NCBI GenBank assembly: GCA_951406725.2 | Contig: OX597814.1 | Location: 190,774,001-190,838,000, forward strand | Reading direction: 5' to 3' | Source of the DNA: Octopus vulgaris | Lineage: Eukaryota | Length of the DNA stretch: 64,000 bases | In this document: positions 11,235 to 62,220 of the stretch, one piece after another | Numbering within the stretch: position 1 is the stretch's first letter | Layout: each line of letters opens with the position of its first letter | Position numbers and translations under genes: made by a program | Notes under the pieces: model-generated | The model's database searches: none | The model's input: only the letters and a program-made list of their open reading frames with translations | What the model was told of the DNA's origin: nothing

Positions 11235-11691
11235 CCTACACATACACACATACATACATACAAATATACATATACATATATATATATATATATACAATCC
11301 AATACAGGCCCATTCCCTAATTTTAATTTTATTATCTTCATTTATTACTTTTGTTATCTTTGATCGCTAGGGCTAAGAATCCTGGCAATGGCTGCCTGTC
11401 CATTTGTCTGTCTACTAGAAGGCAAGTACTCATTCCCGCACGCACACTCATTAGCACGTACATTCACCCATTCGTACACTCATACACATACACGTACGCA
11501 CGCGTTATATTCATACATACAAACATCTACATACGTTCACGTATATACACATACGTACTCGTACCTACAGATTCGTGTCTACACTTTAGGAGGCTAGTCT
11601 ATACATATACACCAATAAATATACATATATATATATATACCCGCATATACATACACACACACACATATATACTCCTACATACAGATACATA

Positions 11692-11743
<52 letters not shown>

Positions 11744-11925
11744 CATACACATACACACATACATATACACACACATACATACACATATATATATACATAC
11801 ACAAACATATATACACACATATATATATACATACACACATACACACATACATACGTATACATACATACATACATCCATACATCCATACTTACATGCATTT
11901 ATACGCATACACACACCCATCTATA

Positions 11926-11959
<34 letters not shown>

Positions 11960-12239
11960 CACTCACACATACATATACAAATCTACGCACACACATACAT
12001 ACATACACGTATACGCATACACGCACATACACATATACATGCGTACCCATACACGTGCACACACGCACGCGCATCCATATATATACACACACACACATAT
12101 ATATACACGTGTGCAAACATACATACATACTCATACGCGCACACATACTTACAAATACATATATGCACCCACTTACACACATATATATACATACACATAT
12201 ACATGCATACATACATATATGCATACATACACACACGCA

Positions 12240-12291
<52 letters not shown>

Positions 12292-13341
12292 TATATACAT
12301 ATATAGACATATATACACATACATACACATACACATACATACACACATATACACATATATATATATATATACACATATACACATACATATATACACATAT
12401 ACATACATATACATACACACACACATACATATATACATATACACTGATACACATACCCATACATACACATGCATATACATATATCACTACATACTCACAT
12501 ATATAAACATACTAGCAGTATCGCCCGGCGTTGCTCAGGTTTGTAAGGGAAATAACTATAAAGCATTTTTAGAGAGTTATAGCCAAAAAATAGCAAAAAA
12601 ATGGAAAAAAAATGATGGTAAATTTTTTTGAGAGTTAAAGGTAGAGTTGCGTCCCCTAGACGGTCTGTGGTTTGGGTTTCTAATTCTCGACCCCATGTCG
12701 AATTTATCGATTTTTTTCAGAACTGGGGGAACTTTTCAAAATTTTCTCTGCGTTAGTTTTGAATTATGACATTGGGCTATGTGTGTGTCAAGTTTCATCA
12801 GAATCGGTTGAAAGCCGTGGTCAGAGTGAGGGTACGAGAAAACAGACACACAGAAACACGCACAGACAAACTGCCGTTTATATAGAGAGAGATATACATA
12901 TACACACATACATATATACATGTACATACACATACGTATGCATATATACATATATATATATACATATATATACACACATATATATATATATACATATATA
13001 CACACACACACACACATACATGTACACATATACATGTATACATACACAAAAATGATACACATATATACACATACACACACACAGACAGATGCATATACAT
13101 ACATATATATATATAAACTACATATCTATATAAATACATACATAATACACATATACACACACATATATATACATTCATGCATATACGTATACAAGTATAC
13201 ATACACATACATACACACACACGCGCACACATACATATACACACACACATATACAAATACATACATACACACATACACACACACACATATATACATATAT
13301 ATATATACATACATGTACACATATACATATGTATATATATA
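11118..13341. repeat. Very long degenerate (TA/CA/TACA)n microsatellite tract
   Basis: Seen directly; source of the spurious 426-aa HTYI-rich ORF. Confidence 0.95.
12512..12892 (-). mobile_element. Non-autonomous Helitron
   Basis: Minus strand starts TCTCTCTCTATATAAACGGCAG and ends cctgagcaacgccgggcgatactgCTAG; inserted between A and T with no TSD. Confidence 0.85.
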
Positions 13342-13719
13342 TCAACAAGGGAGGGTAAAGTTAATTAGTTATTAATCAATTTCATCAAGTGTTCAGTATG
13401 TAAAGGGACCATTATTATTTTGAGTAAACAATGTTAGAGGAAAAAAATTCTCTAAGTAGTGGAAGAGGCTAAAAAACTTTATTGGCTGCTATTTTTTTTT
13501 TTTATTTTTTTATTTTTTTATTTTATTTTTTTATTTTTTATTTTTTTATTTTTTTATTTATCTATTTTATTTATCTATTCTTTCATCTAACTTACCACTG
13601 ACTCCTTGACCACTCCCCCGAGTATGATATTTTGCGCTATGCCTACCCCCAAAAGTCCCCCACCACCACTCCTTTAAACCTGCCTAAATGTATAAATGCT
13701 AATACAATTCTTGTTAAAT

Positions 13720-21644: not shown

Positions 21645-21672
21645 ATGTCGAGCCAAGCCATTACTGACAAAG
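21645..21672 (+). CDS. CEP95: CEP95 coding exon 1 (MSSQAITDK-G)
   Basis: Acceptor tttcag at 21630, ATG 21645, donor AAG|GTATGT phase 1, in frame with the next exon. Confidence 0.75.
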
Positions 21673-23988: not shown

Positions 23989-25926
23989 GATTTGGTTTGT
24001 AGGAAATTTGTCTATCAAATGTTATGGCAAATAGAGAGGTGGACTGTTGTTCTTTAGCCCCCCCCCACACACACACACACTAGCTGTGTGTAGAGAACCC
24101 CTTGGTCAAAGGTGTTCCAGTAATGACCAAGTGTTTTATTTCTATTTTTCAGGCATGACTTATCTAAGATTGAATTATCCAATATGTCCTTTTGTTGTTT
24201 TTAGTACAGTAGGCTGTGATTTGAAGATTTGGTTGCTTTTTCAAGCAGTCTGGGTGGCAACCATGTCGAAAATCTGTCATTTGATTATAAAGTAGCTTTT
24301 TGTTTCCTCTGTGTGTTTTTATTTTTTTATTTTCTTGTTTATCGTTTTGTTGTTATGCTTTGAAATACTTCAAAGTACTTCATGTTTACACAAACCTTTT
24401 GTTGTGATCATTCAAGTGATTTTCAATGTCTACTTGAATGTATATCAAAAAAAATAAATAAATATAATAGTTCAGATTAGAGAAACCGCATGCTTGAACT
24501 TGTGGAGGACAAGTGGAGCATTTAATAATCTTTGAACTTTTATATGTGTCTGATAAAACTTATCTGTGTCCCCTAAGTAAGGAAATGTTTAACCCTTTTT
24601 GTTACCATATTTCTGTTGAAAATCACTCAACATGCAGTTTTGATGAAAGGTTTTTAATTTGGATAACTTTAAAATGGGAAGTTTGTATTATAGAACTATG
24701 GGCAGCCCTAAGCAGGTTGATATCTCAAAGGTTAAACAATTACTATCCTTTTAAAGGTTGCTCCACTTATGGGACACCACATCTATGGAACAGTGTAAAA
24801 ATTAGTGAAATGATCCTGTTATATATATGATATGATATCTAGGATCATTTATTAATCATTTTATATCTCTCCCCTCCAGACTCTCTTACTCTTTTACTTG
24901 TTTCAGTCTTTTGACTGTGGCCATGCTGGAGCACCGCCTTTAGTCGAGCAAATTGACCCCCAGGACTTATTCTTTGTAACCCTAGTACTTATTCTATCGG
25001 TCTCTTTTGCCGAACTGCTAAGTTACAGGGATGTAAACACACCAGCATCGGTTGTCAAGCGATGTTGGGGAGACAGACACACAAACACATACACACACAC
25101 ATATATATATATACGACGGGCTTTCAGTTTCCGTCTACCAAATCCACTCACAAGGCTTTGGTCAGCCCGGGGCTATAGTAGAAGACACCTGCCCAAGGTG
25201 CCACGCAGTGGGACTGAACCCGGAACCATGTGGTTGGTAAGCAAGCTACTTACCACACAGCCACTCCTGTCATATTTTAAAATGTGCCAGTTATTTTATT
25301 CCATATAACCATAAACAGACTGAAAAATAACAAACGAATTACAAAATTATAAAATTTCACTTGTCTACTGCAATTGAATATTGTGATTATGGTGTGGCCT
25401 TGAAATACACCGTAATGTATTTATGCATACTCGCTGATCAAGGAGAAAGGGCAGTGCCCATGATTTTTACAGGGCCTCTGCTACTAGTTGGGAAATGGAA
25501 CAAGGGGCCAGAGACTTGATCTAAATGTTTGCAACAGAAAAGATTCTGCTAAAGTACTCAAGACCTAGGTTGGGTCTTGTGTACTTTATTCATATATTTC
25601 CATTCTTCACATGATTTTTATACCTGAATGCTCTTCTTAACTTAACTCGCCTTATATATATATAAAAATATATATATAAATTTTTATAATTATGAGTATA
25701 ATTATAATTAGGGTTCAGCAAAAAATTTGCTTCACCACATGCCGAAATTTAGAAATAGCAGTTAAAACTAGCTATTTCTCTACCATAAGAAAATCTCCTT
25801 TACCGATAATGGTTCATTTAACATACCAAACTACTTAGTAAAATTATCAATTATTAATTAATTAATTAATTTTACCCTTTATTATTTTATATATATATAT
25901 ATGTATGTATTCTTCTCATCAATAAG

Positions 25927-44805: not shown

Positions 44806-45536
44806 TATACACATACATATATGTATGTATCCTTTTATTCTTTTACTTGTTTCAGTCATTAGACTGTGGCCATGTTTAGGCACCACTTTGAAGAATTTTA
44901 GTTGAACGTGTCTTCTAATATAGCCTCAAGCCAATCAAAGCTTTGAATGGATTTGGCAGATGTAAACTAAAAGAAGCTTGTTATGTGAGTGTGTGTGTGT
45001 GCGCGTGTTTGTCCCCCACCACTGCTTGTTGGTTTGTTTATGTCCCCGTAACTTAGCAGTTTGGCAAGAGACTGACAGAATAAGCAACAAGCTTAAAGAA
45101 AATAAGAACTAGCGTTGTTCCATCATCATCATCATTTAATGTCCGCTTTCCATGCTGGCATGGGTTGGACTGTTTGACTGGGGACTGGTGAGCCAGATGG
45201 CTGCACCAGGTGATGATGATGATGATGGAACAACCCTAGTTCTTATTTTCTTTAAGCTTGTTATTTATTCTGTCAGTCTCTTGCCAAACTGCTAAGTTAC
45301 GGGGGACATAAACACACCAAGGAGCAGTGGTGGGGGACAAACACATACACACACACACACTCGCATAACAAGCTTCTTTTAGTTTCCATCTACCAAATCC
45401 ATTCAAAGCCTTGGTTGGCTTGAGGCTATATTAGAAGACACTTGCTCAAGGTGCCATGCAGTGGGTTTGAACGCAGAACCATGTGGTTGGGAAGCAAACT
45501 TCATACCACACAGCTGTGCCTCTCTATGTGTCTATG

Positions 45537-48280: not shown

Positions 48281-50996
48281 GTAAAACCCTATCATGTGGC
48301 TTTGTTTTTATAGTTGGTTTGCAGGATTTATCATCATCATCATTGTTTAACGTCCGTTTTCCATGCTAGCATGAGTTGGATTGTTCGACCGGGGTCTGGG
48401 AAGCCAGGAGGCTGCACTAGGCTCCAGTCTGATCTGGCAGTGTTTCTACAGCTGGATGCCCTTCTTAATGCCAACCACTCCATGAGTGTAGTGGGTGTGT
48501 TTTACATGCCACCAGCACAGAGGCCAGAGGAGGCTGGCAACGGCCACGATCGGTTGGTGCTTTTTACATACCACCGGCACGGACGCCAGTCAAGGTGGCG
48601 CTGGCATCAGCCACGTTTGGATGGTGCTTTTTATGTGCCACCTGCATGGGTATCACGACTACAATTTCTGTGAATTCATGTAGGATCAAATTTTGTTGTC
48701 TTGGAAGAGTAGAAAGAAGGCAAGTCACTAAGTCACTGAAAAGATTGCAAACAGCAATAAAAGAACTTTGACTAACAAACAAGCAATCGATTGTTTAGCC
48801 AGCGTATTAAACAAACAATTGCTTAGTTAGTTGGTTAGATATTTAATCAAATGACTGATAATTAAGAAGTGGAATTGAACCTGTACGTGTGTTATTATTA
48901 TTGAGAAAACCCAGCAAGTCAAGTGAGACCATAACCTCATGGCTTATGCCAGGAGTGTAGCCAGTCCACTTACGCGTACCTTTCCTTCATTGGACACTAA
49001 ACTCTGCTTGCAAAGACATGTTGAGGCAAGTGAAATTGAAATTGAAATCAAATTCGACGACTGACATCCGTGCCAGTGGAGCACTAAGAGCACCATCCAA
49101 GCATGATCGTTGCCAGAGCAGCTAACTGGCTTCCATGCTGGAGGCACGTAAAAAGCACCATTCAAGCGTGATCGTTATCCACGTCACCTTACTGGCACTT
49201 GTGCTGGTGGCACATGAAAAAAAATTTGAGCGAGGTCGTTGCCAGTGCTGCTGGACTGGCTCCTGTGCAGATGGCACGTAAAAAACACTATTTGAGTGTG
49301 GCCATTGCCAGTTCCACCTGACTGGCCCTCATGCCGGTGACACGTAAAAGCACCCACTACTCTCTTGGAGTAGTTGGCTTTACGAAGGGCATCCTGCTGT
49401 AGAAACTCTGCCAGATCAGATTGAAGCCTGGTGCAGCCATCTGGTTCACCAGTCCTCAATCAAATCGTCCAACCCATGCTAGCATGGAAAGCAGACGTTA
49501 AACGACGATGATGATGATGTTGACAAACTGGCAGAATCAATACCATGCTGGACAAAATGCTTCACAGCATTTTGACTGTCTTTACATTTAGAGTTCAAAT
49601 TCCACCATGCTCAACTTTACCTTTCATCCTATAATGCTGCTACACCAGTCATTAAGGTATGACCCCTTTCCTGGACAACCCGATTAACTATACTGGTGAT
49701 TTAACCATTTCCTACATCATCATCATCATCATCATCGTTTAACGTCCGTTCTCCATGCTAGCATGGGTTGAATGGTTCGACCGGGGATCTGGGAAGCCAG
49801 AAGGCTGCACCAGGCGCCAGTCTGATCTGGCAGTGTTTCTACAGCTGGATGCCCTTCCTAATGCCAACCACACCATGAGTGTAGTGGGTGCTCTTTATGT
49901 GCCACCTGCACAGGTGCCAGGGGAGGCTGGCAATGGCCACGATCGGATTGGTGCATTTTACATGCCACCAGCACGGAAGCCAGTCAAGGCGGCGCTGGCA
50001 TCGGCCACGATTCAGATGGTGCTTTTTACGTGCCACTGGCACTATCTGATATTTGAAGCATCTTGGCAGAAATTCCTAATGGACCTGGGGCTTTCCCTGT
50101 CCTCACATACTTTTGATTGCTTGATCTTTCCTACTGCTGTTAACTAGGATAGCTAATCCCTCTTATTTCTTTACTACCCACAAGGGGTTAAACACAGAGG
50201 GGACAAAAACAAGGACAGACAAAGGTATCAAGTCGATTACATCGACCCCAGTGCGTAACTGGTACTTAATTTATCGACCCCGAAAGGATGAAAGGCAAAG
50301 TCAACCTTGGCGGAATTTGAACTCAGAATGTAACGGCAGACGAAATACCTATTTCTTTACTACCTATAAGGGGCTAAACACAGAGAGGACAAACGGATTA
50401 AGTCAATTATATCGACCTCAGTGCGTAACTGGTACTTAATTTATCGACCCCGAAAGGATGACAGGCAAAGTCGACCTCGGTGGAATTTGAACTCAGAACA
50501 TAACAGCAGACGAAATACCACTAAGCATTTTGCCCGGCGTGCTAACATTTCTGCCAGCTCACCTTAGGATAGCTAATCGCTCTGTTGGGTCCACATTAAG
50601 AAGGCTCTTTCTCCTATGTATTTTTCACTTTTAATAGCTTTTCATAGTAGGATTTCCATGCCTCTTTCTTTTCAGAATCATTAAGTACAAGCATATTGTC
50701 ATCTCTTTCCCTCTTTTATACATGTGTGTGTGCACAGTACCTTGGGCAAATGTCTACTATAGCCTTGGCCAGCCAGACAAACATGTTCAATTTCAGACAT
50801 TTGGATGCTGTTCTTTAATGCAGTAAAGTGTTCCCTCGATGATCTGTTATGGTTAACAATCCATTTGCACTTAGAAAATCCAGTGCAGAGATTTCAAAAA
50901 CCATGATGCTGAAATGATAAAACCTCATTGTCATAATTTCTCACATATAAATAAATTAATAAATAAATTAATAAATAAATACTATATATATATAAA

Positions 50997-58630: not shown

Positions 58631-58717
58631 ATCGAGTTCCTTTCATTTGTCGATAAGTAAAGCAAAATAAAACCCTCGTTCTTTTCTATGTTGCTTCCTC
58701 TCTTCTCAATGTTGCAG

Positions 58718-58851
58718 CTTTTCAAGAACATGTTCAAAGACTCTCTGCAAATGCAGAAAGCGCGAGTGCTGGAACTGCAGAAATATGTCGGTGAATTGAG
58801 GAAACAGAAAACTGAAGCATTGCAGAACGATATAAAATCTATGGAGAACTA
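58718..58851 (+). CDS. CEP95: CEP95 coding exon 16 (LFKNMFKDSLQMQKARVLELQKYVGELRKQKTEALQNDIKSMENY)
   Basis: gttgcag acceptor; ends at the U12 donor ATATCCTTT, phase 2; resembles IFKKLF...QKQRLRDLRNY...SMENY. Confidence 0.92.
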
Positions 58852-59688
58852 ATATCCTTTGAGCAGTTCACATTTCATTGTATTACAATAATTCTTGCTC
58901 TTTTTTTTTTTTTAGTTTTTGTGTTCTTTTTAAATGTTATTGTTGCTTTTTATTATTTGTGTGTGCAGAAGCCATGCCCAAAACAGACAGCAGAGCTTGG
59001 TGTAGTTTCTTTACTTGTCTGTTCTTATCAAACCATCCAACCCATACCAGCAGGGAAAAATGGACATTCAGTGGTGATGATGCTGATGATGATGTTGTGC
59101 TTTTATCTTTTAATCAGTTGTTAGACGGTGGCCATGCTGGAGCACCACCTTGAAGAATTTTAGTCAAACGAATCGACCCCCCCGGTACTGATATGTGTTT
59201 TTTTTTTTTAAAGTTTGGTGCTTAATCTATTGGTTTCTTTTGCCAAACTGCTAAGTTACAGGTACATTAAACACACCAACTCTGGATGTCAAGTAGTTGT
59301 AGGGGACAAATACAGACACAAAGACACACATACATACAAGCTGGAAGAACACTGTTGTATATATATATATGTATATATATATCATCATCATCATCATCGT
59401 TTAGCGTCCGTTTTCCATGCTAGCCTGGGTTGGACGGGTCAACTGGGGTCTGTGAAGCTGGAAGGCTTCGTCAGGCCCAGTCAGATCTGGCAGTGTTTCT
59501 ACGGCTGGATGCCCTTCCTAACGCCAAAGATGCCCTTCCTAATGCCATATGTATATATATATATATATATATATATCATCTTGGGCCACCAACCAAAGCT
59601 TTGTGAGTGGATTTAGTAGATGGAAGCTGAAAGAACTCTGTTGCGTGTGTGTCCAACCCATGTTAGCATGGAAAGCAGACATTAAATG

Positions 59689-59735
<47 letters not shown>

Positions 59736-60738
59736 TCTTCATCATCGTTTAACATCCGCTTTCCATGCTGGCATGTGTTGGACAATTTGACTGAGGTCTG
59801 GCGAACCAGGCTTCAATCTTGATCTGGCAGAGTTTCTACAGCTGGATGCCCTTTTGATGATGATGATGATATATATATAAATTATACAATTTTATGTAGA
59901 GATTGTTAACTTTTACAATACTCAGACTTAAAGTGCTCTAATTGAGCTAATTTCCAATTTATGATTTCAATGGAGGCAATACTAGCAGAAAACTAGAGGA
60001 ACATGACCGATTATCCAATAGAATATTCAATATATATATGTGCACTTTCATTGGACATTAATAAACCAATATAAAGTTCCAGATAATAAAGCACCAAAAC
60101 ACACAAGTATATGAACATATAAATATTTAATATTTAAAAATACGCAAATAGGCGCAGGAGTGGCTGTGTGGTAAGTAGCTTGTCTGCCAACCACATGGTT
60201 CCGGGTTCAGTCCCACTGCGTGGCACCTTGGGCAAGTGTCTTCTACTATAGCCTTGGGCCGACCTAAGCCTTGTGAGTGGATTTGGTAGACGGAAACTGA
60301 AAAAGCCCGTCGTATATATATGTATGCGTTTGTGTGTCTGTATTTGTCCCCTAGCATTGCTTGACAACCGATGCTGGTGTGTTTATGTTTCCGTTACTTA
60401 GCGGTTCGGCAAAAAGAGACCGATAGAATAAGTACTGGGCTTACAAAAGAATAAGTCCCGGGGTCGAGTTGCTCGACTAAAGGCGGTGCTCCAGCATGGC
60501 CGCAGTCAAATGACTGAAACAAGTAAAAGAGTAAATATTTTTAAATGGTTTTTTTAAAAATTACGTTGGCATTATAAATATATAAATACATAAATAGATA
60601 TACAAATAATTTCAAAATCAAAACTTCAAAGGCTGCACATGAAAACAAAATCAGTTCAGCTGAGAGAAAGCTATTGAAGTCAAAATGAATTAAGCTTTTG
60701 TTAATGAATTAAATGTTAGTTTTCTTAACCAATGTCAC
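58852..60738 (+). other. CEP95: U12-type (minor spliceosome) AT-AC intron
   Basis: 5' splice site ATATCCTTT; branch site TTTCTTAAC 60721-60729; 3' CAC; splicing restores SMENYYCDQF. Confidence 0.93.
60149..60533 (+). mobile_element. SINE family A, full length, inside the U12 intron
   Basis: Intact A and B boxes and tail. Confidence 0.9.
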
Positions 60739-60823
60739 CTACTGTGACCAGTTTGGGATGCTTGCAGAAGCAATGAAAAAACAATTAGCAGAGAAGCAAA
60801 TGATGCACAATGAACATATTAAG
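60739..60823 (+). CDS. CEP95: CEP95 coding exon 17 (YYCDQFGMLAEAMKKQLAEKQMMHNEHIK); gene continues past the window
   Basis: Follows the AC acceptor; donor AAG|GTGAGT; resembles YYKDQFSLLAEAI. No stop-containing exon found downstream. Confidence 0.92.
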
Positions 60824-61292
60824 GTGAGTCTTTTATCTTTATTGATTGTGTTGGCTAAGGTAGATTAACAGAAGTAGATTTTAACAAATAACCTGTGGGC
60901 TGTGGCATTATTGTGTGGTACATGGCTTGTAGCATGGTTATATGGCAGAAACATTAGCACGCCGGGCGAAATGCGTAACCGTATCTCGTCTGCCGTTACG
61001 TTCTGAGTTCAAATTCTGCCGAGGTAGACTTTGCCTTTCATCCTTTCGGGGTCGTTAAATAAAGTACCACTTTCGCACTGGGGTCGATGTAATCGACTTA
61101 ATCACTTTGTCTGTCCTTGTTTGTCCCCTCTATGCTTAGCCTCTTGTGGGCAGTAAAGAAATACATATGGTTTGTAGGTGGTAGTTGCAAAAATGAGTTG
61201 TACCTGTATATCAAAGAGTCAGCCTTGTCACACTCTGTGTCATATTGAATCTCCCTGAGAACTACATTAAGGATACACATGTCTGTAAGCGA

Positions 61293-62220
61293 GAACAAAC
61301 AAGGACAGACAAACAGATTAAGTCGATTACATTGACCCCAGTGCGTAACTGGTACTTAATTTATCGACCCCGAAAGGATGAAAGGCAAAGCCGACCTCAG
61401 CAGAATTTGAACTCAGAACGTAATGGCAGACGAAATACCTATTTCTTTACTACCCACAAGGAGCTAAACAGAGAGAGGACAAACAAGGACAGACAAACGG
61501 ATTAAGTCGATTATATCAACCCCAGTGCGTAACTGGTACTTAATTTATCGACTCCGAAAATATGAAAGGCAAAGTCGACCGTGGCAGAATTTGAACTCAG
61601 AACGTAATGGCAGATGAAATACCTATTTCTTTACTACCCACAAGGAGCTAAACACAGAGAGGACAAACAAGGACAGACAAATGGATTAAGTCGATTACAT
61701 TGACCCCAGTGCGTAACTGGTACTTAATTTATCGACCCCGAAAGGATGAAAGGCAAAGTCTACCTCAGCAGAATTTGAACTCAGAACGTAATGGCAGACG
61801 AAATACCTATTTCTTTACTACCCACAAGGAGCTAAACAGAGAGAGGACAAACAAGGACAGACAAACGGATTAAGTCGATTATATCAACCCCAGTGCGTAA
61901 CTGGTACTTAATTTATCGACTCCGAAAATATGAAAGGCAAAGTCGACCGTGGCAGAATTTGAACTCAGAACGTAATGGCAGATGAAATACCTATTTCTTT
62001 ACTACCCACAAGGAGCTAAACACAGAGAGGACAAACAAGGACAGACAAACAATTTAAGTCGATTATATCGACCCCAGTGCGTAACTGATACTTAATTTAT
62101 CGACCCGAAAGGATGAAAGGCAAAGTCTACCTCGGCGGAATTTGAACTCCGAACATAACGACAGACGAAATACGGCTACACATTTCGCCCAGCGTGCTAA
62201 TGTTTCTGCCAGCTTGCCGT
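61293..62220 (-). repeat. Five-unit head-to-tail array of SINE family B (184-bp period)
   Basis: Unit boundaries atttctttactaccc at 61441, 61625, 61809, 61993; only the right-most unit has the head. Confidence 0.92.

Follow-up and report, generated by a model that had tools for sequence, protein, structure and literature searches.

In minor splicing, U11 pairs with the donor and U12 with the branch site. Introns of this class are found with GT-AG or with AT-AC ends, and the occurrence of both end types at one position was termed subtype switching by Burge et al., as cited in PMC2831892, where STX6 in fish is a described case. The passages of PMC3291851 and PMC2831892 that deal with switching state its usual direction as AT-AC to GT-AG. 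According to the same passages, no switch was seen in insects (PMC3291851), and both subtypes occur in 36 of the nearly 1000 clusters of U12DB (PMC2831892). The AT-AG form is described in the relevant part of PMC1557818 as tolerated in mammals and is proposed there as an intermediate. AT-AC ends are shared by the U2-type introns of sodium-channel genes, which have G at +5 (PMC2831892, in its section on these introns). Molluscs are described as rich in minor introns in parts of PMC10639083 and PMC11347168. The closest individual introns are those of human SLC9A7 and LSG1 (score 100 in PMC10810330 Data S1), in which the donor string from -3 to +9 is identical to that of the octopus intron reported here.

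Here, we describe an AT-AC intron in the CEP95 gene of Octopus vulgaris, found in a window of 64,000 nucleotides (the whole stretch of DNA that was analysed). Taken as a whole, the account that we consider likely is that of a minor intron, spliced at 58851/60739, which is likely to be removed by the minor spliceosome and whose two ends are likely to have switched, on the cephalopod branch, from the GT-AG of an ancient minor intron. The features of the gene and of the intron are as follows.

21645-60823, plus strand: CEP95-like gene, coding exons 1-17, placed by tblastn of P0004/P0005; the last exon lies outside the window.
58718-58851, plus strand: exon 16, 134 nt; the last codon letters are GAG AAC TA, where TA is the start of a Tyr codon.
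58852-60738, plus strand: U12-type AT-AC intron in phase 2, 1887 nt long; it is intron 16 of the octopus CEP95 gene.
58852-58860, plus strand: U12 5' splice site ATATCCTTT, with C at +5.
59410-60549, no strand: high-copy interspersed repeats and (TA)n runs, making up much of the intron; depth 10^4 to 10^5 from unrelated contigs.
60721-60729, plus strand: U12 branch site TTTCTTAAC, 9 nt ahead of the last intron base, 60738.
60736-60738, plus strand: CAC 3' splice site (AC terminus).
60739-60823, plus strand: exon 17, 85 nt, with an ordinary GTGAGT donor after it.

The donor ATATCCTTT fits the RTATCCTT form of the U12-type 5' splice site, and the branch site TTTCTTAAC differs by one mismatch from the CCTTRAC type and stands 9 nt from the end of the intron; a CCTTRAC-type site with at most one mismatch, 9-12 nt from the end, occurs in none of the 15 GT-AG introns of the same gene. 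An initial annotation of this DNA had placed the TA-donor boundary at 58851/58852 and had ended the branch site 9 nt before the intron end, and both placements are exact; its CAC acceptor and spliced peptide were likewise reproduced, as the frame joined across 58851/60739 translates to SMENYYCDQF. Its claim that there is no pyrimidine tract is true of the 9 nt that separate the branch site from the acceptor, but the crude pyrimidine share from -20 to -3 is 0.67, which is not separable from the 0.61-0.94 of the 15 GT-AG introns of the gene. As strings in the window, the motifs occur at chance level: RTATCCTTT has 2 matches against 1.57 expected, and TTCCTTAAC with one mismatch has 13 against 19.4. 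The octopus motifs are nevertheless genuine, because they are placed exactly where protein homology breaks and resumes and because contigs join there. A second perfect U12-like donor string, GTATCCTTT at 44827-44835, lies inside intron 8 among repeats and off the exon ends, and was rejected as a splice site. The U2-type AT-AC class, defined by G at +5 and a lack of U12 signals, does not describe the intron, which shares the AT-AC ends of the sodium-channel introns but combines C at +5 with a U12 branch site.

The junction was compared with assembled contigs from four public runs of four studies, for which the RNA status is guessed (X1, X5 and X10) or unstated (X18). In record 17 of X18, positions 58717-58851 correspond to 1960-2094 and positions 60739-60823 to 2095-2179, a direct join; record 24 of X5 joins the same segments directly at 216-350 and 351-435. 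X10, which is not listed across the junction, is compatible with a restart at 60739 by bin arithmetic (51 leftover letters and the bin depths), and the X1 contig stops at 58851, has six letters left over and fails to span the junction. Three of the four runs, from three studies, thus support 58851/60739, two exactly and one by arithmetic. A processed copy would show the same splice. RefSeq protein XP_029642868.1 of O. sinensis includes the joined junction peptide and agrees with the contigs, and the junction proposed initially, from 58851 to 60739, is thereby confirmed.

Signals, contig junction, RefSeq peptide and gene structure agree on the U12-type AT-AC intron in CEP95 that had been annotated, and we hold it almost certain that the intron at 58852-60738 is real and U12-type. 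Judged from its sequence, it is likely removed by the minor spliceosome: from what is known of splicing, U11 would sit on the donor and U12 on the branch site, and the AC lying 9 nt beyond would be picked by its distance. The intron resembles human U12 AT-AC introns in having its branch site near the AC end and TA before the donor, in being the lone minor intron among GT-AG introns and in not being phase 0. It differs from those of SLC9A7 and LSG1 in that CEP95 is off the human list and that its orthologous intron is of the GT type in each of the 12 non-cephalopod loci.

We assign the host gene, by sequence, to the CEP95 (CCDC45) family, its centrosomal name being taken from database labels only. 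PF19016 (N-terminal DUF5745) is found in P0003 at residues 51-109 (E 2.8e-24), and the exons concerned map to the window. Exon 16 has a 100% match in XP_029642868.1 of O. sinensis ('centrosomal protein of 95 kDa-like'), and the C-terminal region aligns gap-free across the junction with the CEP95 of bird, crocodile, coelacanth and monkey. In the part of the gene within the window, 16 introns were resolved, 15 of them GT-AG and one, intron 16, AT-AC; the last 61 protein residues have no match in the window. Wherever the proteins of O. sinensis and O. vulgaris differ, the window follows that of O. vulgaris. Several further observations concern the gene and its surroundings. Intron 11 appears to have two donors (48281-48296), RefSeq isoform X1 being five residues longer than X2 and the O. 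vulgaris model. The first exon lies at 24382-24414 in the O. vulgaris model and at 21645-21672 in the RefSeq models. A 184-bp unit is repeated in tandem at 61291-62173, in the intron after exon 17 (4.8 copies, 91% matches), and a low-complexity TA/CA stretch at 11327-13372 holds open frames of up to 434 codons without coding character. The 90% cluster of the cephalopod-like CEP95 P0009 includes seven proteins of 40-51 residues, one labelled bacterial, which is probably a clustering artefact.

Orthologous introns were sought in metagenomes by a scan for the exon end plus donor, allowing A or G at +1, which by design detects only loci that keep a U12 donor. It gave 86 loci, of which a profile built from 92 CEP95 C-termini kept 12; the other 74 had no profile match. 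All 12 carry the U12-type GT donor GTATCCTT at the same base as in octopus, none has an AT donor, and the upstream exon is 134 nt in each, as in octopus. Two loci end before the acceptor. In the ten that reach it, the intron (176-1701 nt) always ends in AG, the downstream exon runs 85 nt to a GT donor, and a CCTTRAC-like site stands 9-12 nt before the AG with at most two mismatches (at most one in 8/10). The branch site of locus L034 (4330-4368) is the weakest of the GT-AG set, with two mismatches and a pyrimidine share of 0.44, and may be decaying. Four loci are coral-like (91-94% to Montipora/Pocillopora) and two bivalve-like (81-86% to Mya); in the tree, two fall beside the annelid Ridgeia and the remaining four beside the nemertean Lineus, with clade supports of 92 and 90 and deeper nodes at 33-72. 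The 12 loci amount to four lineages only, L048 and L065 being 99% alike and the corals 93-96%. Seven proteins that read through the exon end into L-Y-P have a U12-like donor in which A and G at +1 are indistinguishable, and they were not counted. In two genomic gene calls, P0194 and P0202, the exon extends without a break between the upstream acceptor and the downstream donor, free of an intron at both the octopus and the vertebrate positions, which points to deletion of the intron in one bivalve-like lineage (tree support 59).

Corals are the outgroup to bilaterians, and an intron at the same base in both therefore predates the cnidarian-bilaterian split. With the same codon position and phase, GT-type ends in 12 loci and AT-AC ends in octopus, the position shows the two end types of a U12 subtype switch. 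A GT-AG ancestor needs one switch and an AT-AC ancestor 3 to 4, so that parsimony favours the backward direction, GT-AG to AT-AC, in contrast to the AT-AC to GT-AG switching described in the corresponding passages of PMC2831892. From these sequence comparisons, we judge it reasonably likely that the octopus AT-AC intron is derived, through such a switch on the cephalopod branch. The direction rests on one AT-AC lineage and four GT-AG lineages joined by weak deep nodes, and octopus is the only cephalopod whose DNA was compared. The steps would have been G to A at +1 and G to C at -1, on parsimony probably by way of an AT-AG intermediate.

The alternative is that AT-AC is ancestral and was retained in octopus, while corals, bivalves and other spiralians switched to GT-AG independently. 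It has on its side the direction given in the passages of PMC3291851 and PMC2831892, under which repeated forward switches are possible, as well as the mixed-subtype clusters that U12DB contains according to the latter. Nevertheless, it requires 3 to 4 independent double changes where the derived origin needs one; an AT donor is absent from all 12 orthologous loci, including the bivalve-like ones within Mollusca; and the lack of a switch across insects, as given in PMC3291851, suggests that switches are rare either way. We regard AT-AC ancestry as unlikely and retain the derived origin of the octopus ends.

Whether vertebrate CEP95 has this intron had been left open in the initial annotation, which called for a comparison of orthologues; on the vertebrate side, CEP95/CCDC45 is missing from the human minor-intron table (PMC10810330 Data S1, 755 introns), in which six other CEP rows are present. 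Neither name occurs in the PMC11347168 supplement, in which control genes were recovered and the responsive-intron tables are subsets. The supplements of PMC6865273, PMC11039992 and PMC7367187, searched without a working positive control, gave no CEP95. Vertebrate proteins direct attention to a second point within exon 17.

60749-60752, plus strand: Gln codon, then Phe, 13 nt into exon 17; the vertebrate intron point as deduced from proteins, intron-free in octopus.

Among 104 proteins matching the junction motif, P0146 (Entelurus) and P0090, which groups with bird at support 100, diverge into unrelated sequence, Val first, directly after the Gln four codons downstream, and the fish-like P0069 leaves out, in frame, the stretch between the upstream boundary and the post-Gln point. 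P0088 also has Val after Gln, yet its alignment continues, and it was not counted as read-through. Going by the three protein models, a phase-0 GT intron would lie 13 nt downstream of the octopus site in vertebrates. It is quite probable, from these sequences, that bony vertebrates lost the minor intron and now have, 13 nt downstream of its site, an ordinary GT intron; loss with a nearby gain appears more probable than sliding, given that the 13 bases code for conserved residues. A single history for all of these fates, in which a single minor intron that predates the cnidarian-bilaterian split retained its GT-AG ends in corals, bivalves and other spiralians, became AT-AC in cephalopods, was deleted in a bivalve-like lineage and was replaced in bony vertebrates, is one towards which we lean slightly.

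The initial annotation had also stressed that retention of the intron creates an immediate stop.

58850-58852, plus strand: TAA, read only on intron retention; the unspliced AAC TAA occupies 58847-58852.

The unspliced reading at 58847-58852 is as had been described, but we find no support for treating the stop as a special feature: the split Tyr codon suffices to produce it, 4/12 orthologous loci lack it, and a second in-frame stop stands 13 codons further on. A phase-2 intron in a Tyr codon leaves TA plus the first intron base, and hence a stop with either A (TAA) or G (TAG). Eight of the 12 orthologous loci accordingly read TAG at the junction, and the four coral-like ones have Phe and no junction stop, their first stops on retention coming after 4, 5, 19 and 29 codons; Tyr and Phe alternate at the split-codon residue among orthologous proteins. 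In the human table, which gives no phase, TA precedes ATATCC in 13 of the 755 donors and TG in 15, out of 200 with ATATCC overall (PMC10810330 Data S1). We conclude that the junction stop is very probably a by-product of the way in which the intron cuts through a conserved Tyr codon. It would make no difference to retained transcripts, which would be destroyed in any event, as a premature stop precedes later junctions either way. None of the contigs of the four runs lies in unique intron bins, extends past 58851 or starts at 60720; since rare forms are lost from contigs and the repeat at 58889-58928 was passed over, this is no measure of retention.

A selected role for the stop, in which regulated retention would yield a stable CEP95 lacking the last 90 residues or a signal for fast decay, seems highly unlikely to us. 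Its presence in octopus and in eight of the 12 orthologous loci would suit such a role, as would the retention of U12 introns at about twice the rate of neighbouring introns in human cells reported in the relevant part of PMC4066798. The stop is, however, automatic for any intron that cuts a Tyr codon after TA, it is lacking in the four Phe loci, Tyr and Phe alternate at the residue, and octopus would terminate 13 codons later in any case; the same part of PMC4066798 describes unspliced U12-intron transcripts in human cells as targets of the nuclear exosome. The by-product reading of the stop is thus the one that we keep.

It had further been expected that gene finders built on GT-AG rules would miss the intron and might truncate the gene here. 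One O. vulgaris model bears on this.

58791-60719, plus strand: GT-AG intron of the O. vulgaris model CAI9716529.1 (P0005); the splice reproduces P0005 and is likely a prediction error.

The expectation is borne out in part: CAI9716529.1 mis-splices with GT-AG, exchanging 21 conserved residues for 7, and the O. bimaculoides model departs from the gene one exon before the junction. None of the octopus models seen stops at the TAA, however, and the O. sinensis RefSeq model is correct. P0092 (UPI0001925055) and four short gene calls terminate right before the split codon; the end of P0092, which the tree does not place with molluscs, corals or vertebrates, is what the junction stop would give. 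The least probable reading of all, that GT 58791/AG 60719 is a genuine major-spliceosome alternative beside the AT-AC splice, is in frame and reproduces P0005, and twintrons around U12 introns are known from prospero and URP (PMC2831892, in its section on them), but the splice deletes 21 residues alignable across orthologues, the contigs covering exon 16 continue through 58791-58851 and restart at 60739 rather than 60720, and CAI9716529.1 also departs from RefSeq in its first and last exons.

The exon boundary itself is already known, being annotated in O. sinensis RefSeq, where XP_029642868.1 and XP_036363722.1 represent the same gene with the same junction peptide in records silent on intron class. 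A literature search, with most subscription papers outside its reach, did not link CEP95 or CCDC45 to a U12 or minor intron, and the intron may already be contained in the MIDB, IAOD or intronIC data sets. Searches on octopus and AT-AC gave general papers only, and 'GT-AG to AT-AC' in connection with minor introns was met only as a ratio. What is new is the U12-type GT donor at the same base in 12/12 orthologous loci.

One further minor intron matters little, since there are hundreds per animal genome and the junction was already in the RefSeq of a sister species; as a class member the octopus intron is ordinary, its stop is uninformative, and the interest lies in its history. The finding corrects one O. 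vulgaris gene model, CAI9716529.1, and it indicates that ancient minor introns lost by vertebrates escape lists of minor-intron genes that are centred on human. If the direction is true, the locus would be a clean case of GT-AG to AT-AC, against the usually assumed one-way path from AT-AC through GT-AG to U2. AT-AC introns would then still be being created and not merely eroded, which invites a genome-wide test in cephalopods.
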